The notes below the pieces were generated by a model. It had not been told where the DNA came from. It worked only from the letters and a program-made list of their open reading frames with translations, and made no database searches. Shown piece by piece: positions 1 to 60,259 of a stretch of 63,429 nucleotides of DNA. This stretch comes from Atractiella rhizophila (taxonomy: Eukaryota). The stretch covers positions 1 to 63,429 of the forward strand of contig MU271416.1 of NCBI GenBank assembly GCA_021432655.1, written 5' to 3'. How positions within the stretch are numbered: position 1 is the first letter of the stretch; every line of letters starts with the position of its first letter. A program made the translations under genes and the position numbers.

Positions 1-2058
<2,058 letters not shown>

Positions 2059-3707: not shown

Positions 3708-3838
3708 TACACGAAAGAAATTTCAAGAGTGACACCCTCAGACCAAAGGACTTCGTCGATTGGTTTGTTCTTCCACAAGTTCAAAGGACTATTGTTACAC
3801 GTGACTGATATTGGCAAATGCATGACACGCCTAGTTGG

Positions 3839-10821: not shown

Positions 10822-12370
10822 CCTGTATATGCCACCTTATCACGAACGGAGAACCTGTGTCTGGTCTAGTGTAAGAGAGTCAACAGTTTCATGAACAAAG
10901 AAGTCGTCACTTCGATATCGCGGTGTAGGGTGAGTGCAATTCTGAGGGAGATTAGGATAGACCATTCGGTTTTCTCTGACCAGTCAACATTTTCCTTGAT
11001 TTTTGTGCAGGAAATGGTGCAGAGGTGGGATCAATGTATATCCCCAACTGCTGTTGAACTTTTCCATCGAATACTTGAGATGAGGAGGCCTAATTTTTCA
11101 TTCCTGAGGTTATCTTTCTTCAATTACGCTGGTGGGGTGGTTTCCCAGGCAGGCTCCATACATATTCCTAAGAGGAATATCAGTGCTACCTGTGACAGGG
11201 CCGATTTGAAGAGCTGAACTGCAAAGCAGCTTGGTTGGGGAGCGAGATCTCTACGTTGTTGATTGGTCCGCAAGGGCAACCATAGACGCTTGATCTATGA
11301 TGAATCTGCATGCGTAACTCACCGAGGGAGTCTGAGAGCCTGATGTTAGATGTTAGAACAATCTAACCTCACATCTTGCCTTCTTCAAATCCGTCACAAT
11401 AAACACTACCAACATCAATAGTGTACTTCAACGACGCGACCCAATCCATTGCTTTGCCTTCGTGTCTACCCATCATCCTAGCAAGATCTTTAAGGTCCCC
11501 GAGAACATCAAGAAAGCGGATCGCAAGGGATTGCGGATCTTTTGCATCGACAATGGAGGAATCCGTTCCTTTTCCGCTCCATACATGTTATGCTGGAACA
11601 GATCGTGCTTTCAAGCTGCACACAACTTCTCAACATGCCGGAAGGCGAGGACCTCCGTCCTTGCGATATATTTGACCTCATTTGTGGAACTTCTACTGGC
11701 GGATGGATCGCGCTCATGCTTGGAAGGCGAAATGACCTTTCGCCAATGCATTGCAGCATATGAACAGATTACACAGAAAGTCTTTGTAGAAAACGACTCC
11801 ATCTCCAGTGGCGAATACGCTTACTCGGTGGAAAAGCTTGAAGAAATTTCATTGCTATCATCCAGCGGCATACAAACTCTTCTCACGATTCTGCTAAATC
11901 ACTATCTGTGAAAGATGATTCTGTGCAAGACAGATGCAAAAATGTTGTCTTTTCTACCAACGAGGCCAATGTCGCCGTTTCCACGGAGATGCACTCCTAC
12001 GATGCAGCATCCTCGCCAGTATTCCCTGCTTCCACTCATAAGGTTTGGGAAGGTGCAAGAGCGACAGCTGCCTATCCTCCCTTCTTTCCTCCAATCAACA
12101 TGGATTCCACTGGTTACGTTAACGTAGCTCGAGACAATCCTACAGCGATACCTGTTGAAGAAGTGAAGGGAATTTGGGGATCCAATATTGAGATCGCCTG
12201 TCTTGTATCCCTCGGTTCTGGCATTATGCCGGCCATCAAGTTGGGCCACACTCGAGATGATGTTGAGCGAGCATTGGAGCGATAGTCATAGATTGCTCAA
12301 GGGTTTCGAACGAGGTGACCGTGATGATGCAAGATCGGAGGGCGGGGCATTGTCACCATCGTTTCTCGGT
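10822..12370 (+). repeat. Inverted, diverged segmental copy of about 57170-58737 (NLR promoter plus patatin-coding region)
   Basis: Colinear matches, e.g. aacaaagaagtcgtcacttcgatatcgcggtgt (about 10894) vs the reverse complement of about 58621-58653, continuing to accatcgtttctcggt at 12370. Confidence 0.9.
11462..12370 (+). pseudogene. Patatin-like phospholipase pseudogene (5' fragment of the NLR gene)
   Basis: Same peptides as 53639-58081 (IDNGGIRSFSAPYML, DIFDLICGTSTGGWIALMLGR, ACLVSLGSG) but ATG changed to GTG, several frameshifts and a stop at 12283; no NTPase or TPR part. Confidence 0.9.
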
Positions 12371-26000: not shown

Positions 26001-26434
26001 GATATTTGAATGACCTCCAGGTCTCTCATGAAGCTTTAGAGGTTATCAAGCAGACAACAGCGGCGGCACCATTCAACCTTCATACAAAATTGACCGGCGC
26101 CGGAGGGGGTGGCTGTGCAGTGACAATAATCCCTGATGGTGAGCTTCTTCATCAGGAGCGTCTTTAACGGACTAATCTCGCTCCTTTAGATTTCTCGGAC
26201 GCTCTTCTGGGACGTCTGACCACCCAACTTGCGGATAAAGGCTTTGCTCCCTATCTCACGTCTGTGGGAGGTTCGGGTTATGGGATTCAGCTGCCTAATG
26301 GCAAAAGAGATGCCGTCCGGTCTGAAGGAGGAAACGAAGCATTCACGCTGCCTGGCTTGGAACGGTTCAAGCTTGCGCGTCCTGAACAACTATCCGATTG
26401 GGCGGAAAGCAATGGGAAATGGATATATGTGTAG
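23092..26434 (+). CDS. STR3-ERG12: Cystathionine beta-lyase fused to mevalonate kinase
   Basis: PIYQSATFK, YDYTRSGNPTR, YDSGTKYLSGHHD (PLP Lys), LIRLCVGIED then, within the same exon, [48 protein letters not shown]. Start uncertain (in-frame ATGs from 22975). Confidence 0.9.
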
Positions 26435-28090: not shown

Positions 28091-28115
28091 NNNNNNNNNN
28101 NNNNNNNNNNNNNNN
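28091..28115. other. Assembly gap (25 N)
   Basis: Run of n exactly at the junction of the two duplicate copies. Confidence 1.
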
Positions 28116-30338
28116 AGCCCATTCGACTCCTTTCTCCTCCTTCGAGGCGTCAAAACCTTGTCCATCCGCATGGACCGTCAGCAAATGAACTCTATGCGAA
28201 TTGCGACGTACCTTGATCAGCTTGGATTCCGTGTCCACTATCCTGGACTGCCCAATCATCCAGGGAAAGAGATTCACGACCGGATCTCAAAGGGCAACGG
28301 GGCAGTCCTCAGCTTTGAAACAGGCGACAAGGAGTTGAGCGAGAAGATTGTGGGCGGAACCAGGCTGTGGGGAATCAGCGTGAGCTTTGGATGTGTGTGA
28401 ACAGCTTGATCAGCATGCCTTGTCTCATGTCGTACGTTCCGATCCTTCCTTTGAATTCTTGAGCATTTCAAACTGGTGTTTTTGTAAGCCATGCCTCCAT
28501 CGATCCTGCAGTGCGAGCAGCTAGGAACCTACCTGAGGATCTCATCCGTCTGTGCGTTGGTATCGAGGATGTCGAAGACTTAATCGAGGACCTTGAGGCT
28601 GCTCTTATCGAAGCTGGGGCTGTTCACTACATCGAAGGACGTGCCGGTGGCCCATTCCTCCAAAGAACTGAGGCTTCAACCACCGTAGAAGCGTCGGCGA
28701 TGGCGAAGCTTTCGATTCAAGGGCGAGATCAGCGCGAACTGGTGACTTCGGCTCCAGGAAAAGTTATTTTATTTGGAGAGCATGCTGTTGTGCATGGCAT
28801 TGTAAGCTTATTCCAAATTGCCCCTTGTTCATATTTAAGACATGATTCAGACTGCTATTGCCGGATCTGTGGATTTACGATGCTACGCCTATACCCAAAG
28901 AAGGGAAGATTCCAAGATTGTGCTGTCTTTGCCAGATGTAAACGAAGAGTTTGGTTGGGAGGTTGACGAACTTCCTTGGGACGACTTAGAGTTTGATTCT
29001 GTGGAGGACGTTGCGAATCATGCCCTCAGTGCGACCGTCCTCGACCTGTTGGAGAAGCAGCTACGCAAACGGGATAAGGAGATCAAGATAAGTGGAGCGA
29101 TAGCTTTTGCTTATCTGTATATGCACTTGATCGGGAGGGAGAAAGCGTTTGTCCTTTGTCGTAGCATCAAAAACAGTTCTGACCTCGTGAACTAGGCACG
29201 GGATTACGATGACCATACGTTCCTCTCTTCCCATTGGGGCTGGCTTGGGCTCCTCCGCTGCTTTCTCAGTCACCATCGCGTCCGCTTTCCTCTACATGTC
29301 AAAGCGACTCCCCATTGCTTCTCCCATCTCCAGAGGAAGAAGCACATCATCAAGGCCGGCGTGCCATCCCAGTTGACCAAGCGGACCTCGTCAACGGTTG
29401 GGCTTTTGTTGGAGAAAAGATTCTGCATGGTAATCCCAGTGGAGTTGATAACTCGGTCGCTACTCATGGTGGCGCCATTGCCTTCACCAAAGGAATTGGT
29501 GGCAAGCCAGCTCAAATGGAGGGACTGCACGGGTAAGCTCATGGTTTATGCTCTCAGGGAAAGTGACAAATGGATCTCTAGCTTTAAGTCAATTCGCTTC
29601 CTCCTGACAAATACAAAAGTACCACGGGATACGAAGACTCTCGTTGCTGGCGTCGGAAAGCTGAAGGAACAGGTTTGTTATTTTCCATCCTTAAACTGTA
29701 TCCAATACGAAGTCGAATAGGATCCTGAGGGCATCAAGCGTATTTTTGACGCAATTCAAAACATTAGCGACGAAGCTCGGAGGTGTCTCCTCGATACCGA
29801 GATGCCACGAGATGAGCAAATTGCCACTTTAGAGGTAGATTATCTTTTTTGCGTCGCCTCCAGATTTGACATGCTTTGCAGTCACTCGTCGATCAAAATC
29901 ATGGATATTTGAATGACCTCCAGGTCTCTCATGAAGCTTTAGAGGTTATCAAGCAGACAACAGCCGCGGCACCATTCAACCTTCATACAAAATTGACCGG
30001 CGCCGGAGGGGGCGGCTGTGCAGTGACAATAATCCCTGATGGTGAACCTCTTCATAAGGAGCGTCTTTAACAGAACTAATCTCGCTACTTTAGATTTCTC
30101 GGACGCTCTTCTGGGACGTCTGACCACCCAACTTGCGGATAAAGGCTTTGCTCCCTATCTCACGTCTGTGGGAGGTTCGGGTTATGGGATTCAGCTGCCT
30201 AATGGCAAAAGAGATGCCGTCCGGTCTGAAGGAGGAAACGAAGCATTCACGCTGCCTGGCTTGGAACGGTTCAAGCTTGCGCGTCCTGAACAACTATCCG
30301 ATTGGGCGGAAAGCAATGGGAAATGGATATATGTGTAG
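28116..30338 (+). pseudogene. 5'-truncated second copy of the STR3-ERG12 fusion (allelic contig end or pseudogene)
   Basis: Starts mid-exon at the gap; +2 (tgtgtgtga, about 28392) and +1 (ctccc, about 29322) frameshifts relative to copy 1. Confidence 0.7.
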
Positions 30339-30487
30339 AGATATCTAAATTGCTCTGCTATCAATTGTATGAAGTCCAATTTCTCCCATCGGCTGAGCTA
30401 CTCCAAGTGAGGTATCATACATACACAGAACCCATAACATACATCAAGTAAAAACAGGCAAACGTAAGGGGCATTAAGAACTGATAA

Positions 30488-31616
30488 CTATAAAGTCAGG
30501 CTCTCTTGAGGGGTATTGTTCTCCGCCTGGGTTTGGTTATGCGAGCTTTCGGAGAGAGGGGTTATTGCTTCTTTGGTGGTGGTCTTTCCCTCTTGGTCGA
30601 ATTTGATCTTGCGCTCTGAGGTTGACGGAACGGACTGGTCGTTGGACGAGTCCTTTGGATTTCTGGGTGTGGGATGTGATTGGGGTCGTAACGGTCTCGT
30701 TGCCTTTCGAAGGGCACGGTCGACAGGCCTCCAACACCAAGTCCACAACGTTTTCAAAGATTTGGAGCCTTCACCCTTCAGGACTGCTACTGAATGCCCA
30801 AATTCTTGCAGCTGTGCCAACATGAGCGCGGAGCTCCAGAAGACGGCAATCCCTCGACCAATTCTGGACGTCATGGAGAAGGACTTGTCGATTTCCTTCT
30901 GAACCGTGCTCGGTGATGTCTTGATTTTTTTCCGTTCTCGCAGTCCACACAACTCGCGGATATAGATGACGCAAGATACAACGCTGACGGTGAGGAGGAT
31001 GACTATGAAGATTAGGAACTGAAGAGCGATCATGATTGGGGAGAAGCAGGCTTGGATGATTCCCTTTGTTATTCGGTGAACTGTTCCGACGCGAAGATAC
31101 AAAATCAGGAAGAGAAGGAGAAGATGTTCTCCCTGTTGACAGAATTTACCCTATGCGCCAGAGATGAACGAATGATACGTACGAAAAACATGATTAGTGG
31201 TACCCAGAAAGGCTGCAGTGGGCGAATGGGTTGCCATAGCCCAGTCGGTCGATCGATAGCAGCAATCATTGAAAGCACGAGAACAAGGAAGGACCATAAC
31301 GAATGCCAGTCTAGCAGCGTCAAATACGAGGCTCGAGGTAACAGGGAGTACATGGAGATAGAGTACGCCGCTGTTGATATCGACGATCAGGGTCTCCTTA
31401 GGCAAAAGCGGGAGAGCACACGAACCTAGGGCAAGGACAACAGTGATAGAAAAAGTAAGGCGAGCAAGTTGCTCATTGGTATCATCGGTTCGGGCTATCA
31501 GGAAAACAGCGAGTGAAGAAATCGTGATCAGGTCTATCGAATCTGTTAGGTGACAACGCAGCTTCTTATGAAAGCAGTTTACCGATTGGGAACACTACTT
31601 TGACTATCCATGGCAT
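30488..31616 (-). CDS. Hypothetical multi-pass membrane protein (copy 2)
   Basis: Same exon structure as 26584-27712 with mostly silent or conservative differences. Confidence 0.55.
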
Positions 31617-31686
31617 CCAATTCCTGCTGATGCTAATCCGAAGCTCGATGGCTGAATTCCATTGATTGAGCTCCGAAGGTCCAATT

Positions 31687-34450
31687 TCAAGCTGGGAGAC
31701 GTCCTAAAGAGTACCACATTGTGAGCAACCTGTTCCAAGAGCAGCAAAAACGGACGCGGATGGTTGAATCCTTGAGCGACATGAACAAACGATGGAAAGA
31801 AACTTTATGAATCGTCCAATACGGCGCTATCTTTTCAACCATCGCTCTGTGGATAGCTTCACTTGCCCTCACGTGTGGCTTTGTAAATAGAATCTCGTCT
31901 GACATTTGCTGCAAAACCTGCACAATACATCATTAGCTTCCAAAGGATGCAACGGGAATGCATCTCACAACTCTAACGACGAGGACCTGTTCGTCAAATG
32001 GGAAAAAGCGGAATGTGCCGTAGAACTTAAGTTTGCCCTTGCAATGGGTGACAAAGATCAAATCATCCGGATTGTCCGGAGGGAGGTTCAACTTCTCTTC
32101 AGAGTCTGGCCTTCCTTCAGCTCGCTTCTTCTCCCTGTCTGCTCGCGATGCCCCCTTTCCATAACTGTCCCTGATCGCGCGAAAGGAGCCCTGAAGGACG
32201 GCAAACGGATCCCTCGCCAGCGAAACTGGATCGAACAGAGGGCGGGATAGGTCCTGCCTCAGTTCCGGAAACATCGAGCGGCCCAATCCATTCGTCATTG
32301 CCGGGACCTCCCCTAGCCGAAGCTGACCCATGTATGGATCACCAGGAACCCCATTTTCGTAATAGGTGCGATTCCTGTAATCAAAGTCAAGGCCTTGTCC
32401 GTAAGGCCTTGGTGCGCTGCCGTATATATCTAGATTGCGATGTCGAGACTGTACCGCAATTCGTGGGTCCCAGCGAGCATGCCGTTTCTGTCGGGCTGCA
32501 GAGACGGGGAACTGGGACAGGGTGACATTGAGCCCTGTTGTGGGATAGAGTTGGATGCTAGGAATGAAAGCTTCCGGATTCGGGTGGAGTTCTTCGTCAA
32601 TGGCCGTCTCGGTACGATACTGCTCATACTCCCCAATGTCATCTTTCCATGGCCAATGTCCTATTCTCGCTAGGTGAACGGTCTCCTCACATAGCGATGA
32701 ACAGGCGCACCTTGAGCCATGACATGAATATTCTCACCCTTTCTGTCCCTTACGTTTCTCCCGAAAATGAATTTAGCTCTGATCCTTGGAGGGAGGGTCT
32801 TGGACGGTCCCCCAGTATGGTCGGACTTCATGAACCGGATGACATTTAGGGTCCTCCTCTCTCTTTCACCTGCAACCATCCTCTTTCTCCGCCTCTCTTC
32901 TGGTGACAAGAGCTGATCCCTGATCCTTGAACCGTTCGAATCGTCCGAATTCGCACCCTCATACGGGTCTGCAGCTGCATCATACATCCCCACTGGTACG
33001 TCATCCCATGGAACCCCAACAGACGGTCCACCTCTAAAACCGCGACGGTTGAAACCTACCGGTTCCTGATAGGCCTCAGGGACCTGCCCATATCCATCTT
33101 CCCTCGTGTGAGCAGGGTCAGATCGAGAGGTGAGAACATGAAGGGTCTCCTCGTTCGGAAGGGGTGGTCGTTCACGTTCATTCTGCCCCTCTCCATTTCC
33201 ATTTCCGTCTCGTGCTTCTGTAGGATATGCATTCTGTCCCTCTCCATTTCCATTTCTGTCTCTTGCTTCTGTAGGATCTGCATTCAGCTCGACCTCTTCG
33301 ATTCCTGGCATCCCGCTCGTAGCACTGTCCATCGGTCTTTCCGCATCTCCAACTATTACAGGCTCTGATTCCCTGCTAAACACCACCCGGTGCTCTTCGT
33401 GCATTCCCGAAGGCGGCCAGCTCTGGGGGTTTCTCAACCTGACTGTCTCCGGACTACCCATCCTCGACGTCGGGTCACTCATCGCTTCTGGGGAGCGGGA
33501 CGTGTGGCGGTCGAGGGGGAGGATATGTGATCCTGGGCCTCTGGGCGAAAATGAACCTGTTTCGCGAGCATAGGCGAGATCGTTTCGCTCGTCTATGTCT
33601 TGGAGGTTTATCTCTTGTTGAAGGACCGAGGATACTCTGCATGTCTGCTCGAGCCAGGTTTGGAGACGTGATGGAGGTGGAACGGGCGGCGTTGGGTCAC
33701 TGGAGGGGTCCTGAGGTCCTGTGGTATTTGGAGGACCGTGCTCAGGTCGAGGGGTATGATCGCCGGTGGGTAGCGGAGGGGAGGGGGGATCGTTGGGTTT
33801 CAGTGGAGAGTTATCTTCGTCAGGCTTTGTTGGCGTTGTCCATGAAGCATTCAACTTTGCGAGGTTTTTCCGGTTCAACGGGAGATGCTTTTCTCGAGGA
33901 GCGGTCGCGCTCTCTGGGAGTGGTAGGTCAGAAGCGGAGAGTTGGGTGATGCTAGGATGCTGGAAGCACGTTTGGGGTAAGTTTCTAATTCTTGCCAACA
34001 GGAAAGGGAAGATACCGTCTCAGGCGCGACGGCAGGCGTCCATTGAAGCGCTATCCAAAAACTCAGATTCATAGCTCGTTCCTCCTACAATTATTGGTTA
34101 GTACAGCTGGTCTGACGACTAGCGCCGTATGGAACGGGCCAACGTACGTCGTCAAGAGCTCCAATGTCCTCCAGAAAGAATTGCAAGCCAATGTTCCTAG
34201 CTTATCATCAGAGAACCGAGAGGACTAACAAGGTGAAACGACTGACGAATGTACATTCCCCCTGGACTTGGTGACAGAATCTGGCCTCTTCGCCCAGGGA
34301 TACATTTCGTCGACGTCGAATTCATCCTTCGGCAAACGAGGATGGGCAGGCCCATAGTTGTAGCCTGGACACGAATCATTAGAAAGCTTGAATCAGGGGA
34401 CCTCAAGGTGACACATACCATAGAACTCCTGGTATCGAGAGTGCAACGTC
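31687..34450 (-). CDS. Large hypothetical protein with a Pro-rich disordered middle; boundaries uncertain
   Basis: 442-codon open exon (32670-33998) plus flanking same-strand exon-like ORFs; internal 14-aa duplication TEARD(R/G)NGNGEGQN; family not recognised. Confidence 0.5.
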
Positions 34451-34948: not shown

Positions 34949-37874
<2,926 letters not shown>

Positions 37875-46780: not shown

Positions 46781-47622
46781 AGCTATGCACCGTGATAAGA
46801 TAAATCTGACTATTACTAACTATTACTGGTGCAGGAACGACGGCAAAGGACGCGTGAGTTGGTAGAAAGTGGGAGAAATTTTTGCGAATGCGATGTGTTC
46901 GGCGTTCGCCTTTGGTTCGTCGTGTACGCTGGACGAGTGTGGGATTGATGCAACATTGCATATTGATGGATGGTTGACGGTGTTTACAACGCAGAGTATC
47001 TTAATAGATGAAGGGGCTGTTACATTTGGCATTGACGCTGTGAGCACTCTAGTACCAAATCAGTAAAGAGGATAGTAGAAGTGATGAATCTCTTGCATGC
47101 TAAACAAAATGTTTGAGTGGCATCAAATCAGTCCTTGCGTATAGGGAACACTGTTGCTCAAGAGCTGCAGACTGCTCTTATCATCTACTTTTGATGTTTG
47201 TGCTGACCTCTTTGACCGGCTTGCTGCTGCCTGCGTCATGCCGAAGCTCCTTGTATTGTGCTGATTTACTCTTCGCCCCCTGTCAAGTTCAGTTTGGGGA
47301 CTTGGTACAGTTTGGGACGGTTTAGGGAACCGTCCCAAATCGTCCCATCATGTAGGCTTTTTGAAGCTGTCCTGGAGGTTTGGGATTTCTGGTGTGGGGT
47401 AGACTGTTGAGATTACTCTTGACCTTCAAGGAAGCTGGTTGTTGATGGGCCTGTTTGTTCCAGCCCTAAAGGTAGCTCAAACATCACAATGGGTTCTAGA
47501 AGAGTATAAAGGCATACATTTTCCTCCTTTGGACTGAGCTGTTTATACTAAGCTTTGAACATCGCAGGGAGAGGGAGCTGTTAGGGCTGACACTATGTGC
47601 GGTCGCCGATGGACGATGCGTC

Positions 47623-47882
47623 TGTAGTGGAGGTAAACCTAAGAGAATACTCTGAGGTCACCTCCACTACTCTCAGATCTATATATACAAGCGGAATAAC
47701 ACTGCCACAGAGCGTAGATGAGAGCAGATGAAACATGTAAGAGAATTAAAAAGGGGAATTGACAGTGGGATTACGCGGAGTTAATAAGAAGAAGATAGGC
47801 ACAATTAGGCTAAGTGGTGATGTAGGTGCAAATGGGCGAACGGGTGACCGGGCGCCGAATTGCGTAAGACGCAAAGCTGACA
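47623..47882 (-). repeat. 3' LTR (260 bp, TG..CA)
   Basis: tgtagtggaggtaaacc...gcaaagctgaca, abutting the PPT (acacccccc on +). Confidence 0.75.
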
Positions 47883-50800
47883 ACACCCCCCAGTTTCCGT
47901 GGTGCTTGCTGCAGGCGGAAACTTCTGCTTCGTGAGGTTTGCCTATTTGCCAAAAATGCCAAAAGTGCAAGGCACCGCTTGAAAGGAGATGAAATCGTTG
48001 GAGTAAAGAGACATTATGTACTTTGTAATTTGAGGAATTTGTTCGAAGTTGACCAGGTGTTGTTTTGGTATAATAAGTGTCCATCCTGTGAAAACGGACT
48101 GGACAACTCACCAACAAACCGGTCGCCTAGACCTACGTTCAACAATGTGACTAGGGATTCACCCAGCGAGGCGTGCAGAGGAGTAGGACCTCTTAATGTG
48201 AGGGGGAGGGGACCTCGCAATTGAGGGCAATTTTCGTAAATGTGACATTGGTGATGGTGCGAGAACGCAATGAGCATTTGTCTTTGACGGGCGACGAATG
48301 GACTCACCAACGACCATGTCGCCGACTTGCCCGTTGAGGAGCAAGTCGGCACCTTGCCTTGACCTAAGTATCAAAGACTAGGATTTCACCAGGCAAGGCA
48401 TATGGGGTGTTGGACCCCTTAAGGTGAGGAAGCTGCTTCAGCACGTTTTCGTCAAAGGTTACGAAAATGCGCATTTGAGTGATTTTTGGCGGAGTTTGGG
48501 ATGGAATCGGGACGAACTGCAAGAGGGTGTGCAGTGTAATAGTCTTTTATAGCATCTTGTGAATTTTCTAGCCCTGCGATGTTGATCCACTCGTCCTCAG
48601 ATGGTGAATACCCTTTGTATCGAACGCGATATTTGAAAACTCTATTTCGGGTACCAAATCATTTTCTATCAACAATTTTTTCCACTTCCCATTCTTCAAT
48701 TCCATTCACCAAATCCGGAGGTGGTTTGGGCAACTGGACTCTGCCCGGGATGTCGTCTTCGTCGACTTTTCGTATTAGGCCCACATGGAACACTGGATGT
48801 ATCTTCCATGAGGATGGTAACTCGAGTTTAAGGTGGAGGGGACCCAAACTTGCAAAACGCGAAAGGGCCATGCCATTTGTCGTCCAACTTTTTGACAGGT
48901 CTCGTCGATTTGATGTTTTTCGCGCACAACCAGACGAAATCGCCGACATGATATTCGGGCGCCGGTGCGCGTTTTCTGTCATAATGTTTTGCCATGAGAT
49001 CTGCTGCTTGCTCGAGTGCCGCTTGTGCTTCCCGGTCAGCGATTTGTATCTTTTCTACGAATTGCGCCGCCGCGGGAACGTCCTCGTCGGAGATGGGTTC
49101 AAAGGCCATGTGTGGATGTTGACCGCAATCGAGAGAAAATGGAGTTACGCCCGTCGCCGAACTGATACGATTGTTGAGCGCAAATTTTGCGTTGGGAAGT
49201 CCTTCCACCCAATTATCTTGGAGGTGATTGCAGAAAATGCACAAATATTGTTCAACTTCTTGGTTCATACGATCAGTCTGATCATCACTTTATGGGTGGT
49301 AGGCTGTCGATGGTGAACCCTTGATACCTAATAGGCGAAAAAGTGCGGATGTGAATTTGGACACAAACTCTTTGCCTCAATCGAAAATTGCGACATCAAA
49401 AGTCCATGTAACTTCCATATGTGATCGCGAAAAAGTCTTGCAAGGCCTTCTGCATCCATCGTCGAATGGGTGGGGATGAGATGGGTGCGTTTTGAGAGTC
49501 TGTCTACTATGACGAAAATCATGTTGAATCCCCCAGATTCTAGGAGTGGTCCAACCAAGTCCATGCTGACAATTTGCCATCGACGCGTGGGAATGTCATT
49601 TGGTTGCAAAAACCCGACAGGTGGGGAAGGAAAGTTTTTTGTTCTATGGCAAGTGTGACAGGCGCCGACATAGCGGCGAACATAATGCGCCAAACCTGGC
49701 CACCAGTAGTACCTTCTTACGAGAGCCGTCGTCGATTTTACGCCTGGATGACCGGCGATTTGCAAATCGTGCAGGTCTTGCAAAATCGAGCGGTGAATTT
49801 CGTCATTGCGGGGAATGTAGAGTTTTCCGTGAAAATAGACAGCGCCATCGACTTCTTGCCACTCCTGTCGGCGAATCGGGTCGACTGGTTCGTCTAGGAT
49901 CTCTCTCTCAAGGCCTTGACTACTTGTTCTTCTCGTTCGGGTACCTTTTTCACACGTTCGAGTATACTCAACTCCGACATTGTGTTGTGAGCGCAACTGC
50001 GCTCCCAGTTGCGTTGATCGTGATACGATCTGTGTTGAAAAAACGTTCTGGGAGTAATACTACGTCAAAGTTGTCGCAAGTCGCCGGTTTGTGATCCGGT
50101 CGCCGACTGAGCGCATCTGGTTTTGCGGAGTTCCGCCCAGGACGGTGTAAAAGAGTGAAGTTGAAGGATGCAAGTTCAGTGATCCAACGTGCCTGTCGGC
50201 GATTCAACTTCTGCGGCATTCTGAAATACTCAAGATTTTTGTAATCGGTTAAGATCAGAAGTGGCTCATCAGTACCTTGAAGAAGGTGTCTCCATTCTTG
50301 CAGTCCCCGCATAATCGCGAGCATTTCTTTGTCGTAGGTGTCATAGTTCCTCTGGGCAGAGTCGAGCGATTTTGACATGAAACCGAGAGGATGAAACTTC
50401 CCATCAGGCTTCATTTGCGACAAAACGGCGCCTGTCGCGAAATTTGATGCGTCGACTTCGAGCAAAAACCGTCCTACTTGTTCGGGATGCGCCAAGATGG
50501 GCGCCGAAGTCATGAGCTGTTTCAAAGCGGCGAACGAACGTTGTTCGTCTATCCCCCAGACCCAGGAAACCTCCTTTTTGGTTAGTTCATATAAAGGTCT
50601 TGCGATGTGACTAAATCTGTCGCAAAAGCGGCGATAGAAATTAGCGAAACCAAGGAACATTTGGACTTCCTTCATGTTTTTTTGGTTCCGGCCAATCCAT
50701 CACTCCTGCAAATTTCACTGGATCCGGTTCGATCCCTCTGCTGGAAATGATCAAGCCTAGATACTCCACCTCCTCTTGACACCAAATGCATTTCTGCAAA

Positions 50801-52866
50801 TTTACGTAAAGTCCATTTTCGCGCAAAATTTGACAAACTTGTCGAACACGTTCCCAATGTTCTTCTTCAGTCTCTGTCGCAATGAGGATGTCGTCGATGT
50901 ATATGAAGATGAACACAGCGGCGATCATCGCGCGAAAAATAGAGTTCAGGAAAGCCTGAAAAGTCGCCGGTGAGTTGCAGAGACCAAAATACATCACCAA
51001 TGGTTCGAAAAGTCCGCAATTTGTGCGAAACGCCGCTTTGTGCTCGTCTCCTTCTTTGATGCGAACGTTGTTGAAACCTTTTCTCAGGTCAATCTTGCCA
51101 AAAAATTTCTTACCAGAGACCATGGAGAAGAGGTCAGCTTGGATAGGGAGTGGATTTTTGTCCTTGATTGTGGCTGCATTCAACTTACGATAGTCGAAAA
51201 GGGGACGAAGTTCGGGTGAGTCTTTTTTGTGTGTAAAAAAGACGGAAGCGCCATGTTCACCTGTGCTAGGACGTATACGAACGGCGCTCAGTTCAGCGTC
51301 AATGAATTGGTCGAGCGCCGCTTGTTCGTCTCTTTTCAAGGGGTAGACGGGACCAGCATATGGTTGAGCTTCCGGTTTGAGGTTGATGGCATGGTCCCAA
51401 GGTTGTCGAGGAGGAAGCGAGGTTTTGAATTTTTCGTGGTCGAAAATGTGTGCAAAATCGGCGATTTGCGTCGGTATTTCGACAACGCTTTTTGGTCTCA
51501 TCGCCGCTGCGTCTTTCGCCAGTTTCTGCGATTTTGTCATGGCGGCACGTATTGAGGCAGAGACGATGGAAGTTGGTCATGTGTGGTAGACACATCAACC
51601 GCGTTGCAACTGGTGGGGCAACGAGAGAACTCAACTTTCCCTGACGCCCAGTTAATCTCTGGGTTGTGGTGCCTCGGCCAGTCATGACCCGGAATCATGT
51701 CAACTGTCCCCAACTCCGCCACAGCGAATTGCCAAACTTTGTGATGGGCGGCGATCGAAATGGGTAAATAAGCGACTGAATGGATGGAACCCCCCTGATT
51801 GAGGGATCCGTCGATATTGTAAACGGGCGCCGGAGAAGGGAGTTGAATGACAGGTAGGTTGTATTCGGAAACAAGTTTTGGGGAAATAAAAGAAGTGGTG
51901 GCCCCACTGTCAACGAGCGCCGACGTGGCGTGTCGGCAGTGGGAATGTGGATGATGGAATGCAATTCTGAGCTTCGTCTTCGAACTGACAAGGGATGTTG
52001 TTGTCGAGTGTAAATGGACTTTGTCATACATTTTTGCGACTTCTGCGCATCTTTGTTTCCAGGAGGGAAAACATAATTTTGGGAATAGGGAGTCTCCCTC
52101 AGACGAGGGGAATACTGTGCCGGGCGGCGTTTTGTTGGAAGTGATTTTAGATGACGTAAATGAATTGCAAGTTGGCGATGGGGACACTTCTTTCACCCAC
52201 CGCTGTCCTAAAAAGCCTCTTCTAGATCTTTTGATTGGGTAACACTCGTTTTCGGCGACTGGTTGGCGTTTTACGCAAATTGTCGCTCTTGGTCCATCAT
52301 CTTTGAATCAAAATATTCTCCTTGAGCTCGGAGATATTGTTCTTTGCTCATAGTCGTTCTACACACTCTTTCCCAGTGCCCTATCTTCTGACATCGTCTG
52401 CAACGGTGAGGCCTAGATTTTGTCGCATCGACTTCCATGTCATCACGGTCTTTGGCTCTGTGAGCGTGTGTAGCGGCGTTTGGTGACAGATCGGCGACCG
52501 TTGGCAAAGTGGCACTCGGTGGATACAATACGGGTGTTCTGCTTTCTCTGTGTTTTGTTGATTTTGAACTGTCTCTCCTTGCAGAAAACATATTCTGGGG
52601 TCCGTCTTTCGCTGATGGGATGTTTCGAAAGAAGGTTGAATGTGCAGATTCTTCTGCATCAATTCGTCGAGATTTTTCTTTCCAGTCTTATAGTGATTTT
52701 AGGAACTCTCCTTGGGTTACTTTGAGATGTAGGGCAGGATTGAGTCCTCGTTTGAAGAAGAAAATAAGAGCTTCATCAGGCCAAACACTATGTGCGGTCA
52801 CCGATGGGCGATGCGTCTGTAGTGGAGGTAAACCTAAGAGGATAGTATGGCATGAGAAGACTAACC

Positions 52867-53388
52867 TGTAGTGGAGGTAAACCTAAGAGAATACTCTGAG
52901 GTCACCACCACTACATCTTAATGTATATATACATATGTAAAGGCACTGCCATAAACTGTAACATACGTTTCTTGAAACATGTAAGATAGCTAGATCAGGA
53001 AAGCAATAAAGGGAATACTCGGAAATAAGACATACTGAGCAGTACAAGTGAGAAAGGATAATAAGGCAATAATGGCGACGGTGCAGACCGGCGAAATGTA
53101 TAAGGTTTGCTGAGCGGCGATTCGTGTGAGATGGGGCAAGGCGGCGGTCAGCGCGAACGTGAGCAAAGCGGCGACAGGTAGGCACATGATCCTACGACGT
53201 ACTAAAGTAGGTCACGTGACATCAAATGGTGCATTTCGGTAATGCGTAGGAGCAAGCCTGACATTCATGTAGAACACAAACGGGCAAACAGGCACCGATT
53301 TGCGGGGAATTTGCAGGGAACGCAAATGCGCGATGGGAGACGCAATCCGGCGAACGGGTACCAATTTGTGTAAGATGCAAACCTGACA
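52867..53388 (-). repeat. 5' LTR (about 520 bp, TG..CA)
   Basis: Same termini as the 3' LTR (tgtagtggaggtaaacc...gcaaacctgaca); interior diverged and longer. Confidence 0.7.
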
Positions 53389-53638: not shown

Positions 53639-56600
53639 TCAATTTATATGGGGACTGTGAGATAAAACGTACCGAAACAATCCAATAATTCCTTGCCATC
53701 GTAAAGCCTTTTTCATAGCAGTTTCTTTTGTCACACCCATTGCTTTTTCTGCCTGTCCAATTCTGTCAAGCAAATTATCACAGTATTCGATGTCTGAAGC
53801 TGTGCAGCATTCCATGTAAAGCGAACGAGCCTTCACGATTTCCTCCCTTGCTTCAGCATATCTGGACAGTTCGAAGAGTTGTTGTGCCATTGTCTCTCTA
53901 CTGATGGCCTCAAGATAGCCACCCACTGTCTGACTCAAAATGATCGCTTCCTTGTATAACTCAATCGCCTTTGTAAACTGAGAATCCTGAGTCAAAATGG
54001 AAGCATTACTGTAGAGACAATTAAGTTGACCTCCCACATCTTCGAGGCCTAAATAGAGCTGCTTTGCCTCCTCGAACTGTTTTAGTGCTTCCTCATTGTT
54101 CCCGCGACGCTGCTTGATCTCCCCAATGCTGTGAATGCAGTGGGCCAGGCCTTGCTGATCTTCCACCACCAGGTACAGCTGCTTTGCCTCCTCAAACTTT
54201 TTCAGTGCTTCCACATTCTTCCCACGATGCTGCTCGATCTCCCCAATGCTGTGAACGCAGTGGGCCACGCCTTGCCAATCTTCCACCACCAGATACAGCT
54301 GCTTTGCCTCCTCAAATTTTTTCAGTGCTTCCACATTCTTCCCACGATGCTGCTTGATCTCCCCAATGCTGTGAATGCAGTGGGCCAGGCCTTGCTGATC
54401 TTCCACCACCAAATACAGCTGCTTTGCCTCCTCAAATTGTTTCAGTGCTTCCTCACTCCTCCCAAGATGCTGCTCCATCTTCCCCTTGCTGTAAGTGCAG
54501 TGGGCTAGGCCTTGCTGATCTTCCACCACCAGGTACAGCTGCTTCGCCTCCTCAAACTGTTTCAGTGCCTCCTTATTGTTCCCACGATGCTGCTTGATCT
54601 CCCCAATGTTGTGAATGCAGTGGGCCAGGCCTTGCCGATCTTCCACCACCAGATACAGCTGCTTTGCCTCCTCAAACTGTTTCAGTGCTTCCTCATTCTT
54701 CCCAAGATGCTGCTCCATCTTCCCCTTGCTGCGAATGCAGTGGGCCAGGCCTTGCCGATCTTCCACCACCAGATACAGCTGCTTTGCCTCCTCAAACTGT
54801 TTCAGTGCTTCCTCATTCTTCCCACGATGCTGCTCGATCTCCCCCATGCTGTAAATGCAGTGGGCCAGGCCTTGCCGATCTTCCACCACCACATACAGCT
54901 GCTTTGCCTCCTCAAACTGTTTCAGTGCTTCCTCATTGTTCCCGCGATGCTGCTCGATCTCCCCAATGCTGCAAATGCAGTGGGCCAGGCCTTGCCGATC
55001 TTCCACCACCAGATACAGCTGCTTTGCCTCCTTAAACTGTTTCAGTGCCTCCTCATTGTTCCCGCGACGCTGCTCGATCTTCCCCTCGCTGTGAATACAG
55101 TGGGCCAGGCCTTGCCGATCTTCCACCACCAGGTACAGCTGCTTTGCCTCCTCAAACTGTTTCAGTGCTTCCACATTGTTCCCACGACCCTGCTCGATCT
55201 CCCCAATGCTGCGAATGCAGTGGGCCAGGCCTCGCTGATCTTCCATCACCAGATACAGCTGCTTTGCCTCCTCAAACTTTTTCAGTGCTTCCACATTGTT
55301 CCCATGACGCTGCTCGATCTCTCCCATGCTGTGAATGCAGTGGGCCAGGCCTTGACAATCTTCCACCACCAGATACAGCTGCTTTGCCTCCTCGAACTGT
55401 TTTAGTGCTTCCTCATTGTTCCCGCGACGCTGCTTGATCTCCCCCATGCTGCGAATGCAGTGGGCCAGGCCATGCCGATCTTCCACCACTAGATACAGCT
55501 GCTTTGCCTCCACAAACTGTTCCAGTGCCTGTTGTGGATTCCCCTTCTGTTGAAAGGCTAACCCTAGAACCATGTTTAATTCCGCTGTGATTGCTGGAGT
55601 TGATGTAAGCTTCTTGCAGGACAAAGCACACTGGATCAATGGTACTGAGGGGAGGCTTTGAAGATACAGAAAGTTCCCAATGCCTACAATGAAATTGAAT
55701 CCCTTTGTCGGATCTTTGAGATGTTTGAAAGCAGCTAATAGTACGTGTTGAAGGTTTGGAAAATCGTTGCGAAAAGCCAACAGTCCGATCCGTTCAGCGT
55801 CATCTTTGAAACATCGATAATTTTTACAAGCCTTCTCCATCAGACCTTCAGTTAAGGGCTCGAGTGATAAAGTGGTGACTTTGAAAGGAGGAAGAGGACC
55901 CAAGACCAAACGGTTGATATATTCCCGAATTGGAGCCAGCATGCGCAATCGTGAGGTGTGTGTAAGAATGTCATCAACATTTTCAGCAAGTCCAACCTTC
56001 AAGATTGAGGTGACGAGCACAGCAGAATCCTCTGAATGGGGAAGGCTGGAGTTATTGCCAAAGGCGATAATGTCGTCAGCCAGAAGACCATCAGGGGTCC
56101 AAGATAGAAGGGCAAGGATAAAAGCACTGAGGTCCTCATTCTTCTTGAGCAGAGGTGAATCGAGTGAAAAGGATATCGAAGTGGCAAGATTGCGTGTCTC
56201 CTTGCTGTCTTCATTCCAGAGTACACTGGTTTTCTTTTCCTCCCATTCATCCACCAAAACCCTTAGCTCCTTCGTCGATTCTTCATTTGCACGAAGAATG
56301 AAGAGCTTGATGGACAGGGCATGGCGATCCAGTTTGGTAGCAATGGTCTTGACTAGTTGTTCATCATCCGGGCAACCTTCCCGAGCAATGTACATGTATT
56401 TGAACATATCCTGTACGCCATTATTGCTCAAGCCTCCAATCGCTAGCTTTTGCAATCTTATGCCTGGCGAGTTCACACGTTCAACCTGATGGCCTCGATG
56501 TACTACGACAAGAATGGAACCAGAAGGACATTTGGTGGAAAAAAGAGTCTGGAAGAATGACTGTAGGTTATCATTGTCAGACTGTGCCGGAGTTTCAAAA

Positions 56601-58081
56601 TTATCGAGGATAAGGAGACACTTGTGAGCGTTGAAATATTGTTCGACAGCAGTAAGTTCATCTTGGCCAGGCGGAGGAGCTAATCCAAAAACTTCTTTGC
56701 AAAGGTTGGTCGAGAGAGAGGAGAAGTCGGAGAAAGCGTCGCAGCGGGCCCAAAAGCGAAAGTCTGCTTCCTTACCATCCGTGGCGGTCCTGAATGCGTT
56801 TTTGATTTTGTCTGTATGTAGGACTTCCAGTGCAACAGTAGATTTGCCGTTCCCAGCACCACCGATGATAGCGAGGTGCTTCTTGTCGGTAAGGATGAAT
56901 TCTATCGCTTTCTCGATTTCCTCTTTTCTTCCGTAGCAAGCCGCTCGAGGAGGTAAAGGGATCTTCCTGTGCACTGTGACACGATCTTTATGGTCTACAT
57001 AGCAGAATGTTAGCATACAATTACCAATGACGAAGAGTATACCTTTCGCCAGCGATTGAGCAACGCTCAACACTTCATGCTTCATCGCTTCCATGTAAGC
57101 CATCGTACCTCCTACGGCATCATTCTTTCGCCCCCACTCCTGCCACTTGAAATCTCCAAATGTATCGACCGAGAAACGATGGTAACAATGTCCCGTCCTC
57201 TGCTCTTGCATCATCACCTTCACCTCGTTCGAAACCTTTGAGCAATCCATAACTATCGTCTCCAATGCTCGGTCGACATCGTCTCGAGTGTGACCCAATT
57301 TGATGGCAGGCAAAATGCCAGAACCGAGGGACACAAGACAGGCGATCTCAATATTGGGTCCCCAAATTCGCTTCGCTTCTTCAACAGCTATCGCTGTAGG
57401 ATTGTCGCGACCTACGTTAACGTAACCAGTGGAATCCATGTTGATGGGAGGAAAGAAGGGAGGACGGGCAGCGGTCGCTCTTGCAGCTTCCCAGACCTTG
57501 TACGTGGGAGCAGGGAAAAACGGAGATGATGAAGCACCAGGAATATCGTAGGTGCGCATCTCCGTGGAAACGGTGACGTTGGCCTCGTAGGTAGAAACAA
57601 CAAAAGTTTTGCACCTGTCATGCCAGGAGGCATCTTTCATAGAAAGCGATTTCGCAGAAGCGTGAGAAGAGTTCATATGCCGCTGGATGATAGCAATGAA
57701 AGTTTCTTCAAGCTTTTCCGCCGAGTAAGCGTACTGGCCATTGGAGATCGAGTTATTTTCTAGAAAAACTTTCTGTGTGATCTCTTCATATGCCGAAATG
57801 CATTGGCGAACGGTCATTCCCAGCCTCCCAAGCATAAGTGCAATCCATCCGCCAGTGGAAGTTCCACAAATGAGGTCAAATATATCGCAAGGACGGAGGT
57901 CCTCGCCCTCCGGCACATCGAGAAGTTGTGCAGCTTGAAGCATGATCTGTTCCAGCATGTATGGAGCGGAAAAGGAACGGATGCCTCCATTATCGATGCA
58001 AAGGATCCGCAATCCCTTGGGATTCACTTTCTTGATGTTCTCGGAGACCTTAAAGATCTTGCTAGGATGATCAGTAGACAT
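53639..58081 (-). CDS. Fungal NLR-like receptor: patatin-like phospholipase - STAND NTPase (NB-ARC/NACHT-like) - TPR repeats
   Basis: DNGGIR, GTSTG; P-loop GGAGNGKST, Walker B LLILDNFE, RMLAPIREY; 12 conserved 40-aa TPR-like units. Probable 48-nt in-frame intron at 56995-57042 (GTATAC..CTAAC..TAG). Confidence 0.92.
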   Translation of the reverse strand: MSTDHPSKIFKVSENIKKVNPKGLRILCIDNGGIRSFSAPYMLEQIMLQAAQLLDVPEGEDLRPCDIFDLICGTSTGGWIALMLGRLGMTVRQCISAYEEITQKVFLENNSISNGQYAYSAEKLEETFIAIIQRHMNSSHASAKSLSMKDASWHDRCKTFVVSTYEANVTVSTEMRTYDIPGASSSPFFPAPTYKVWEAARATAARPPFFPPINMDSTGYVNVGRDNPTAIAVEEAKRIWGPNIEIACLVSLGSGILPAIKLGHTRDDVDRALETIVMDCSKVSNEVKVMMQEQRTGHCYHRFSVDTFGDFKWQEWGRKNDAVGGTMAYMEAMKHEVLSVAQSLAKGILFVIGNCMLTFCYVDHKDRVTVHRKIPLPPRAACYGRKEEIEKAIEFILTDKKHLAIIGGAGNGKSTVALEVLHTDKIKNAFRTATDGKEADFRFWARCDAFSDFSSLSTNLCKEVFGLAPPPGQDELTAVEQYFNAHKCLLILDNFETPAQSDNDNLQSFFQTLFSTKCPSGSILVVVHRGHQVERVNSPGIRLQKLAIGGLSNNGVQDMFKYMYIAREGCPDDEQLVKTIATKLDRHALSIKLFILRANEESTKELRVLVDEWEEKKTSVLWNEDSKETRNLATSISFSLDSPLLKKNEDLSAFILALLSWTPDGLLADDIIAFGNNSSLPHSEDSAVLVTSILKVGLAENVDDILTHTSRLRMLAPIREYINRLVLGPLPPFKVTTLSLEPLTEGLMEKACKNYRCFKDDAERIGLLAFRNDFPNLQHVLLAAFKHLKDPTKGFNFIVGIGNFLYLQSLPSVPLIQCALSCKKLTSTPAITAELNMVLGLAFQQKGNPQQALEQFVEAKQLYLVVEDRHGLAHCIRSMGEIKQRRGNNEEALKQFEEAKQLYLVVEDCQGLAHCIHSMGEIEQRHGNNVEALKKFEEAKQLYLVMEDQRGLAHCIRSIGEIEQGRGNNVEALKQFEEAKQLYLVVEDRQGLAHCIHSEGKIEQRRGNNEEALKQFKEAKQLYLVVEDRQGLAHCICSIGEIEQHRGNNEEALKQFEEAKQLYVVVEDRQGLAHCIYSMGEIEQHRGKNEEALKQFEEAKQLYLVVEDRQGLAHCIRSKGKMEQHLGKNEEALKQFEEAKQLYLVVEDRQGLAHCIHNIGEIKQHRGNNKEALKQFEEAKQLYLVVEDQQGLAHCTYSKGKMEQHLGRSEEALKQFEEAKQLYLVVEDQQGLAHCIHSIGEIKQHRGKNVEALKKFEEAKQLYLVVEDWQGVAHCVHSIGEIEQHRGKNVEALKKFEEAKQLYLVVEDQQGLAHCIHSIGEIKQRRGNNEEALKQFEEAKQLYLGLEDVGGQLNCLYSNASILTQDSQFTKAIELYKEAIILSQTVGGYLEAISRETMAQQLFELSRYAEAREEIVKARSLYMECCTASDIEYCDNLLDRIGQAEKAMGVTKETAMKKALRWQGIIGLFRYVLSHSPHIN
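54056..55530 (-). repeat. Coding tandem array, 120-bp unit, 12 full units plus a partial unit (high-internal-conservation TPR)
   Basis: Every second 60-nt line repeats; unit consensus GLAHCIxSxGEIEQxRGNNEEALKQFEEAKQLYLVVEDxQ. Confidence 0.98.
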
Positions 58082-58639
58082 GGAGGCGATAGCAATGGAT
58101 TGGATCGCGTTGTTGAAGTAGACGGTTGGTGTTGGTAGTATTTATTGTGACAGATTTGAGAGAAGAGAAGATGTGAGGTTGGATTGTTCTAGCATCAGTC
58201 ACATCAGACTAGCTCCGTGAGTTACGCATGCAGATTCATCCTACATCAAGCGCCTGTGGTTGCCCTCGGGGACTTCCGATCAGCGATGTAGAGATCAAGC
58301 TCCCTAACTATGCTGCTTTGCAGTTCAGCTCTCTAGACGGCTCTGTCACAGGTAGCACTGATATTCCTCTTAGGAATATGGATGGAGGCTCTCTGGAACC
58401 CACTCCCACCAACGTACGTGAAGGTAGGTAAACTTCCGGAATGCAAAATTGGGCCACCTCATCTCAAGTCTGTGATGGAGAAGTTCAACAGCAGTTGAGA
58501 ATATACATCGATCCCACCTTGCACCCTTTCCTGCACAAAATCAAGGAAAAAATACTGACTGTTCACGGAGACAATCAGAACGGCCTGTCCTAATATTCCT
58601 CAGAACAATACACTCGCCCGACACCGCGATATCGAAATG

Positions 58640-58870
58640 ACGACTTCTTTGTTGATAAAACTGCTAGGATACCTTTGACTCTCTTACACTGGACCAAAGA
58701 CAGCTTCTCTGCTCCTGATAAGATGGCACATAACAGGGCAACTCTGATTGGCTGCGTTTGTTTGGGCAATCTCCGCCCATTCGTGCGTGGCATATCTTGC
58801 ATATCTGCACGACCAATCCCAATCCTACAATTTCTGATTCTTATCGTTTTCAATCCTTTCTATCAGATTG
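58640..58870. promoter_or_regulatory. Cluster of HGATAR motifs in the divergent NLR/GATA-factor intergenic region
   Basis: tgataa at about 58653 and 58716, cgataa (minus) at about 58841, atctgatag (minus) at 58860-58868 resembling the SreA site ATCWGATAA. Confidence 0.35.
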
Positions 58871-58936
58871 GGCCCCTGCTCTACCTACCCACCCCTACGA
58901 CTAACAACTTCTCGGCCCAAATCAAAATTCTGCAAA

Positions 58937-60259
58937 ATGCCAGTTCTCACCCCAGCACCGTCACCAGCCATTCTTGCCAGCAAGTCGCTCCCAGACGAAC
59001 CGCCGCTGGGATCCTGTCCCGGAGATGGGCTTTGCAATGGGAAAGGAGGAGCACCGCAATGTCGGGGATGCCCAAGTTTCAACAATTCTGGACGGCTTGT
59101 TCCTGTTTCTGGACCGGGGTCAGCAGAAAAGCGAAGTAATGGGATGCAGACCCCGGAGGGCAGTATGAGCGCTGAGGAGATGGGAGAAGACCAGTTGATG
59201 GAGGATGCTGAGGCTGGAGACAGCGTGAGTGCTTCGTCAGCCGCTGCACCTGGAAAAGTTGCCCCGATGTGTTGTGAAAATTGTGGGACGTTCAATACTC
59301 CACTGTGGAGGAGGGATGGAGAAGGGAGGGTCGCCTGTAATGCCTGTGGTACGTCTCCTCTTTGATATCATTATCAAAAGCTCACGAGGGACTTCAGGTC
59401 TGTATTATAAGGTTCGCTCTCTGAGTGGTCTTAATTGAATTTGAAGTGATTGTATTGGTCGAACAGCTCCATCGCAAACATCGTCCTGTAAACATGAAAC
59501 GACCGGTTATAAAACGTCGCAAAAGAGTTCCAGCCGCCAACTCATCCTCACAATCTCAGACCCCGAAAGTGAGCTATATTTCTCTTTCCTCGCCTCCCCG
59601 AAACTACCAAAGTGATATGCTGATGGAACATTTATCAGAAGCAGCACGCTACCTATACTCCTTACCCACCACCGCAAACGTACGCTCGCCAGCAAACTTC
59701 TTCAGCTCGCCTCTCCCCATCATCCACTTCGACATCATCAGAAGTTATTGATCCCTCTATGCGGAGACGCAAATCTCCTGCTGCTCAACAACTCCAACCC
59801 GAGCCTCAATTCCAACCAAAATCGCACCTCCAACCCCTCGCTCAAATCCAACCTCAAGAACGTCGTTCTCCTTCGAACACTTTGCCAGAACTGGCCGCCG
59901 TAGCTTCAGCTATGCTGCCTTTGCATCATCAAGCAATGAACAGCAGTAATGGGATGGGAGACGATGATAAGGAGCGGTTTAAGGAAGAGCTCGAGCGTTC
60001 TATCGGAAGGGCAGAGGAGGAGAGCAGGAGGTTGAGTCGGTTCTTGGAAGAGGGTAGAGACTTGTTGAGACGCCTCAATTCGTCTAGTGGGAGTTCGGAC
60101 GGCGTGGGCGGGGGAAGTGGAAATGGAAATGGAGAGGTGAGATTAAGCTTGAATGGGAGGAGCGGAAGTGGTAGTGGCAGCCTCTGGCCAACGTCGCCCG
60201 CCGTGGTTTGGGACGCCGGACTCTCTCAACAGATGCAGAGAGTGGAGATGCAAAGTTGA
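58937..60259 (+). CDS. Iron-responsive GATA transcription factor (Cir1/Urbs1/SreA family), single zinc finger
   Basis: Cys-rich box [24 protein letters not shown] followed by [34 protein letters not shown] and a C-terminal coiled coil; 14-nt microexon 59398-59411. Confidence 0.85.

Follow-up and report, generated by a model that had tools for sequence, protein, structure and literature searches.

We analysed contig MU271416.1 of Atractiella rhizophila (assembly GCA_021432655.1; 63,429 nucleotides, hereafter referred to as the window), which encodes a NOD-like receptor (NLR; NOD, nucleotide-binding oligomerization domain) of the Patatin-NACHT-TPR type, with conserved tetratricopeptide repeat (TPR) sensor units. 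About half of the recurrent amino-acid variation between these units runs through series of codons connected by CpG transitions, and an earlier note had proposed that repeat-triggered methylation or deamination acts as a built-in generator of diversity for the recognition residues. Our results point to a simpler explanation. The gene is probably an ordinary conserved-repeat NLR, in which CGN arginine codons at selected surface positions, transition-biased mutation, selection and the shuffling of units together account for the pattern, with no need for a dedicated repeat-triggered deamination process. The CpG series exceeded background by about two- to threefold, with p values of 0.02 to 0.08 depending on the test, an excess that is suggestive only.

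According to this explanation, unequal crossing-over or gene conversion would maintain the likeness of the twelve 40-residue TPR units, and variation would persist chiefly where helix A and the A-B loop are exposed. Several of these exposed positions have a CGN codon for arginine. Ordinary point mutation, biased towards transitions and with a CpG excess that is modest at most, would convert these codons into codons for His, Cys or Tyr, or for Gln or Trp, and selection and unit shuffling would then spread the variants.

Domain architecture of the receptor and layout of the array

The receptor gene is a single open frame on the minus strand (Table 1), in which no frameshift or internal stop was found between positions 53639 and 58141. 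Its product combines the features by which fungal NLRs of the STAND (signal transduction ATPases with numerous domains) type are recognized: an N-terminal effector domain, a central NACHT NTPase with a P-loop (GGAGNGKST in the translation) and C-terminal repeats that form a superstructure and show high internal conservation (HIC). These repeats scored 229.8 bits with the Pfam model TPR_12 and 119.5 bits with TPR_10, and the domains found thus bear out the earlier assignment of the gene to the NLRs. The closest proteins were two “TPR-like proteins” of A. rhizophila, P0035 (KAH8930767.1) and P0019, which makes a Pucciniomycotina lineage, as assumed in the earlier note, probable. The protein search yielded no relative with more than 32% identity to the N-terminal part of the receptor. 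A related sequencing data set (run X1) contained 354 contigs matching the gene outside its repeats (55560-58189), with identities ranging from below 90% to above 99%, and the summed contig depth of this part was 900-4000, versus 280-400 over the flanking genes. Given this high depth and wide spread of identities, the receptor appears to be one of a family present there in multiple copies.

Tandem Repeats Finder (TRF) detected a single array (54053-55528; period 120, 12.3 copies, 90% matches, no indels), at the position given in the earlier note (54056..55530). In the coding register, unit 1 corresponds to positions 55501-55382 and unit 12 to positions 54181-54062. Any two units differ at 5-21 of their 120 nucleotides (82-96% identity), with a synonymous polymorphism (pS) of about 0.13. 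Forty of the 120 array columns vary, 30 with a transition and 12 with a transversion, and the extension of this transition bias over all columns supports ordinary mutation as its source.

The two end units, 1 and 12, are near-twins (6 differences) and have in common CTA, TTC-GAG and CGT-CGC-GGG, which are mostly missing from the inner units; their likeness may be a trace of the ancestral unit or the result of an earlier duplication of a block. Units 7 (54781-54662) and 9 (54541-54422) share a linked block, K19, K21, M22 and L26 (SKGKMEQHLG versus SIGEIEQHRG), and constitute a second unit subtype. The near-identity of units 1 and 12 and the block shared by units 7 and 9 fit a process of unit shuffling. 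A mosaic pattern was also evident in the four-gamete test, in which each informative column was incompatible with 3-16 others, for CpG and non-CpG columns alike. The second base of codon 17 alternates over units 1-8 (G, A, G, A, G, A, G, A, encoding R, H, R, H, C, Y, R, H), hinting at an older two-unit period, although the other columns do not follow it and TRF gives a period of 120 only.

Table 1. Coordinates of the receptor gene, its domains and repeats, and the related or adjoining elements of the window
Feature	Position	Strand	Basis or remarks
NLR gene	53639..58081	minus	1500 codons in a single open frame, extending from stop to stop over 53639-58141; first Met, 58081
Patatin-like phospholipase effector domain, residues 47-241	57419..58003	minus	Pfam PF01734, E 2.3e-15, 57.8 bits, cut-off 27.7
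NACHT-type nucleotide-binding domain, residues 423-582	56396..56875	minus	Pfam PF05729, E 7.5e-9, 36.1 bits, cut-off 26.7
Degenerate TPR unit before the array (N-terminal cap)	55502..55621	minus	64% to reference copy; helical in the AlphaFold2 model
12 conserved TPR units, 120 bp (40 aa) each	54062..55501	minus	TRF and coding-register alignment
CGA arginine codon, unit 3 codon 10	55232-55234	minus	contradicts the claim that no variable arginine codon is CGA
Degenerate unit 13, with TPR-like C-terminal helices that are still more diverged	53642..54061	minus	tail aligns by eye with that of Atractiella P0035
Degenerate gypsy-type retroelement (protease, reverse transcriptase, RNase H and integrase in four broken frames)	48543..52900	minus	adjoins the NLR gene
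Inverted, truncated, frame-broken paralogue of the NLR upstream region and patatin part	10822..12370	plus	matches 57168-58737 (minus), 84.6% over 1588 bp

Variable codons and their position in the predicted fold

The codon series described in the earlier note are all present in the 12 units. Codon 17, following AHCI, is CGC in three units, CAC in six, TGC in one and TAC in two (R/H/C/Y), and codon 9, following ED, is CGG in six, CAG in four and TGG and TGT in one each (R/Q/W, plus the single TGT). Codon 25 is CGT (4), CAT (7) or GGT (1), giving an R/H series, and codon 26 is CGC (4), CGT (5), CAT (1) or CTT (2). The E/K series consists of ATC-GAG (6) and ATC-AAG (4), together with ATG-GAG (2), and the silent TTC/TTT series of TTC-GAG (2) and TTT-GAG (9), together with TTT-AAG (1). 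The states TAC, TGT, GGT and CTT each require a step other than a CpG transition, and codons 19, 21, 28, 30 and 35, some half of those that vary recurrently, are unrelated to CpG. The caveat that the I/M/K/E column (codon 19) is not CpG-derived holds. The further claim that none of the variable arginine codons is CGA is contradicted by codon 10 of unit 3 (Table 1). Arginine is encoded by 23 CGN codons and one AGG codon in the array, versus 30 and nine in the rest of the gene, a comparison that is not informative, as the array codons occupy only six independent positions.

An AlphaFold2 single-sequence model was obtained for the cap and six units; the best of five models had a predicted local distance difference test (pLDDT) score of 95.1 and a predicted template modelling (pTM) score of 0.85, and the other four had pLDDT scores of 28.7-54.0. 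The model consists of 17-residue helices separated by 3-residue loops, with two helices per 40-residue unit: helix A at positions 9-25, the A-B loop at positions 26-28, and helix B at positions 29-40, continuing through positions 1-5 of the unit that follows. Of the 11 positions varying in at least two units, nine belong to helix A or the A-B loop. A helical wheel made by hand placed positions 10, 17, 21 and 25 on the polar face, opposite the L12/I16/I19/G20 core. In the TPR domains of LGN, the ligands bind to the inner helix-A groove. These domains, from LGN/Pins proteins (3ro2_A, 4wnd_A and others), were the nearest solved folds in a Foldseek search (template modelling scores of 0.87-0.90 over about 286-290 aligned columns), but the sequence identity was only 18-19% and the protein is an animal spindle-orientation scaffold; the likeness is one of fold, relevant to the place where ligands may bind, and not one of function. 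A sequence search of solved structures returned only designed pentatricopeptide repeat proteins and was not informative. The variable sites in helix A and its A-B loop are probably those of the ligand-facing groove. The concentration of variable residues in this part of the modelled fold agrees with the earlier account of them as putative recognition residues.

The ratio of non-synonymous to synonymous polymorphism (pN/pS) was 1.73 in the 12 variable codons, a set chosen post hoc, and 0.17 in the other 28, with a pS of about 0.13 in both, which would be consistent with diversifying selection at the variable positions.

CpG-type transitions within the array

A repeat-triggered process, either related to repeat-induced point mutation (RIP) or based on 5-methylcytosine aimed at the tandem array, would raise the rate of CpG transitions in the sensor repeats and thereby supply mutations to the recognition residues. 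We consider this explanation unlikely. The array contains 39 CpG dinucleotides, distributed over units 1-12 as 6, 2, 4, 6, 4, 3, 2, 3, 0, 1, 4 and 4; unit 9 has none. CpG occurs in at least one unit at 12 dinucleotide positions, and in at least two units at seven. An unbiased class of CpG-type columns was defined without regard to variation, as those in which the consensus has a pyrimidine preceding G or a purine following C, so that no site was counted as CpG merely because it was variable.

Several observations weigh against an explanation by ordinary mutation, selection and shuffling. With the unbiased class, 12 of 30 CpG-type columns were transition-polymorphic, versus 18 of 90 other columns (odds ratio 2.67; one-sided Fisher test, p=0.028). 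CpG-type columns accounted for 40% of the transition columns (12/30), versus 24% of the transitions in the pooled controls described below (41/169; p=0.06). No CpG position is fixed across all 12 units, and transitions were found at all seven recurrent CpG positions (p=0.002 with random placement, a figure that rests on unpolarized changes). In P0035, position 17 is occupied only by R, H or C, and position 9 by Q, W, R, L or V (15 units), which fits codons toggled by transitions. Finally, the surface mapping described above rests on helix periodicity (DSSP helices and the hand-made wheel) rather than on coordinates, and the evidence for selection consists of raw pN/pS values rather than the results of a proper codon model.

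The absence of fixed CpGs, the changes at all seven recurrent positions and the higher odds ratio in the array than in the dispersed paralogue pair (1.31, see below) also speak for repeat-triggered deamination, as do two further features. The observed/expected (o/e) ratio for CpG in the array is 0.40, the lowest in the window, and that for TpG+CpA is 1.62. The shared CpGs (CGT CGC-GGG and TTC-GAG) are kept mostly in end units 1 and 12, with TpG or CpA forms in the inner units. The enrichment in the unbiased class persisted when only columns with the minor state in at least two units were considered (7/30 CpG-type columns versus 6/90 others, p=0.018). A class defined in a way that favours variable sites gave a much stronger result (10/14 versus 20/106 transition columns, p=1.2e-4), which is inflated by that definition.

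Several properties of the array nevertheless argue against such a process. Its odds ratio did not differ significantly from that of the paralogue pair (z=1.40, p=0.08), and the modest excess of CpG-type transitions over the other columns of the units is not clearly greater than that in control sequences of the same window. The excess at silent columns was not significant (3/6 CpG-type columns versus 9/37 others, p=0.20). CpG columns showed no extra homoplasy, with 9.1 four-gamete incompatibilities per column versus 9.3 for the other columns (p=0.52). The low CpG content must be read with care: 39 CpGs were observed and 66 ± 6 were obtained in simulations from local codon usage, but the units are copies of one another and not independent, and the consensus unit has three CpGs versus an expected 5.3 ± 1.8 (P=0.15). 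The degenerate unit upstream of the array has TTT at codon 36, and the units are without an outgroup for polarizing the direction of C-to-T changes.

The sequence context provides a further argument. As had been claimed, several of the CpG sites are in a TpCpG context (five of the seven recurrent positions are TCG on the coding strand). Nevertheless, there was no preference for this context within the array: with both strands counted, transitions were found at five of seven TCG cytosines and five of seven other CpG cytosines. A TpCpG-specific RIP process was therefore rejected as the cause of the variation.

Control sequences from the same window

The paralogue fragment (Table 1), which sits 45 kb from the NLR gene, served as a non-repeat control, and the gypsy element as a control for repeat DNA. 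The paralogue pair differs by 202 mismatches, with CpG-type transitions at 29 of 306 sites versus 88 transitions at 1187 other sites (odds ratio 1.31, p=0.14). Contrary to expectations for repeat-triggered deamination, this 1.6-kb dispersed duplicate has a symmetric spectrum, with 36 C>T and 26 G>A changes versus 30 T>C and 25 A>G changes, and 20 CpGs are lost in one copy and 14 in the other. A class definition of the kind that favours variable sites, here CpG in either copy, raised transversions 2.6-fold and transitions 2.8-fold. Likewise, the gypsy element displays no CpG or TpCpG decay despite its age, with o/e ratios of 1.15 for CpG and 1.47 for TCG, consistent with the earlier remark that the neighbouring retroelement retains its CpGs. 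Its terminal repeats (47583-47716 and 52778-52960) can be aligned over only about 120-160 bp, at 80-89% identity, which is not enough sequence for deriving a spectrum.

A 3.9-kb direct duplicate (24239-28115 and 28116-32020, 98.2% identity) was used as a weak control only, because its two copies meet at a 25-base run of N (28091-28115), making an artefact possible; instead of a genuine tandem duplication, it may represent a pair of haplotypes or a join made in assembly. Its 39 real mismatches comprise 28 transitions, eight of them CpG-type, and 11 transversions. We also compared contigs from four public runs with the non-repeat part of the NLR gene and the downstream genes. Among the best supported 40 of the 762 differences, which were those examined, 24 were transitions and four of these were CpG-type, for a class containing 23% of the sites. 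Overall, none of these neighbourhood controls points to a CpG or TpCpG process directed at repeats in the window. With no TpCpG preference, no significant silent excess, no extra homoplasy in the array and no decay in the controls, the proposal of repeat-triggered deamination as a built-in diversity generator remains unsupported.

The same controls bear on a second alternative, also an unlikely one, in which genome-wide CpG hypermutability, not specific to repeats, would bias the residues available at selected CGN codons, the array simply being the place where selection allows the changes to persist. The composition of the window (CpG o/e 0.85, TpG+CpA 1.10) is consistent with such a background, as is the number of CpGs in the non-repeat part of the NLR gene (116, versus 141 ± 9 expected from codon usage), and the controls lean weakly in the same direction (odds ratio of 1.31 for the paralogue pair, eight CpG-type changes among the 28 transitions of the 3.9-kb duplicate). 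However, in none of the controls was the enrichment significant, the paralogue pair included, and the four CpG-type changes among the 24 transitions in the best 40 of the 762 run differences do not exceed the share of that class among the sites.

Codon choice and selection

A third alternative, which we regard as quite improbable, is that the contact positions are deliberately encoded by CGN codons and that their CpGs, methylated owing to the repetition of the array, mutate several-fold faster than neighbouring sites, providing built-in hot spots that would toggle residues between R, H, C and Y or between R, Q and W in TPR receptors of the Atractiella type. The hotspot codon usage of antibody variable regions would constitute a parallel. 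This reading was kept in consideration because of the R/H/C set at position 17 and the Q/W/R residues at position 9 in P0035, together with the absence of a fixed CpG in the array.

Least probable among these alternatives is an explanation by selection alone, according to which Arg, His, Cys, Tyr, Gln and Trp would be tolerated or favoured at contact positions, their codons would be neighbours in the genetic code, and the CpG pattern would carry no mutational information. It is favoured by the restriction of position 17 to R/H/C(/Y) both here and in P0035, even though the two arrays are only 55% identical and other P0035 columns contain five to six residue types, and by the finding that non-synonymous columns contribute most of the enrichment (9/24 CpG-type columns versus 9/53 others, p=0.049). 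By contrast, the silent columns, including CGC/CGT and TTC/TTT before G, gave a similar odds ratio of about 3, which selection on residues would leave unexplained, albeit with numbers too small for significance.

An ordinary conserved-repeat receptor, shaped by transition-biased mutation together with selection and unit shuffling, remains the explanation that we favour.

Relationship to known systems

The repeats of P0035 are of the same 40-residue type and 55% identical to the receptor over the array, the C-terminal tail is also similar, and P0019 is 41% identical to the receptor in the NACHT region. P0035 contains about 15 copies of this unit type, which are much more diverged from each other than are the 12 units described here. 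In the Atractiella proteins, columns 9, 10, 17, 25, 26 and 28 hold sets of the R/H/C/Q/W type, as in the array (C/R/E/Q/H at position 26 of P0035), but many more columns are variable, with residue sets unrelated to CpG; these sequences were compared as proteins only. A metagenome scan with the array protein yielded 17 loci, all with no more than 37% identity and too distant for a CpG test at the DNA level.

The closest known counterparts are the HIC NLRs of Podospora anserina (the WD40 genes het-d, het-e and NWD, and NLRs with TPR or ANK repeats). The effector-NOD-repeat architecture is common to both, and both have near-identical repeats, few hypervariable surface positions and a mosaic pattern suggesting unit shuffling, with a truncated pseudogene paralogue in the vicinity and a transposable element (TE) next to the gene. 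By analogy, the variable positions of the array appear to behave as they do in the known Podospora cases, for which a repeat-directed C-to-T process has likewise been proposed to feed diversity. Paoletti et al. (2007; PMC1805685) propose that RIP, a repeat-specific hypermutation process, would raise the supply of mutations for the conserved WD repeats of NLR-like genes. Dyrka et al. (2014; PMC4986451) repeat this proposal and describe polymorphism of TPR and ANK repeats, with selected sites on the concave face. A later Podospora study (Genome Biol Evol 2026; PMC13449251) finds C>T/G>A changes to be the predominant polymorphisms of conserved-repeat NLRs and offers the speculation that such repeats and RIP together generate diversity faster; the term “CpG” does not occur in that article. 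The general idea of repeat-specific hypermutation as a source of NLR repeat diversity is therefore already published for Podospora, which lends some plausibility to repeat-triggered deamination in the present array. The two situations differ in several respects, however. The host here is a basidiomycete (Pucciniomycotina-like), whereas Podospora is an ascomycete; the candidate context is CpG, rather than the CpA/CpT of Podospora RIP; the paralogue fragment has no directional C-to-T signature, unlike Podospora NWDp1/2; and the units are less alike than the Podospora HIC repeats.

In Pucciniomycotina, the TpCpG hypermutation of repeats mentioned in the earlier note has indeed been described: Horns et al. 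(2012; PMC3318451) report it for TE-like repeats in four species, and themselves remark that the confinement of hypermutation to repeats was not demonstrated. This precedent, like those from Podospora, counts in favour of repeat-triggered deamination. The locus described here has in common with that process the probable subphylum, CpG transitions in repeated DNA and the TCG context of most recurrent CpGs, but the process hits TEs, whereas the sequence affected here is a protein-coding array, with TCG and non-TCG sites hit equally, next to a gypsy element that is not depleted in TCG. A limited search of the literature found no work linking CpG deamination to the NLR repeats of basidiomycetes.

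The chief contribution of the locus is to extend the conserved-repeat receptors of the Patatin-NACHT-TPR type by an example from Pucciniomycotina, and it yields a concrete and testable prediction for population or methylation data. If CpG-directed, repeat-focused mutation did operate here, it would constitute a second and mechanistically different programmed supply of mutations for innate receptors, beside Podospora RIP, and such a generator would tie basidiomycete DNA methylation to the evolution of immune receptors.

Other features of the window

Directly upstream of the NLR gene, the translation of an open reading frame on the plus strand (58838-59365) contains a GATA-type zinc-finger-like motif (C-x2-C ... 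C-x2-C). The 3.9-kb duplicate covers a fragment of a pyridoxal phosphate-dependent enzyme of Cys/Met metabolism. The window also contains two AAA ATPase genes with Vps4-type C-terminal domains (715-2058 and 35721-37710, both on the plus strand), and a Nop14 gene that looks basidiomycete.

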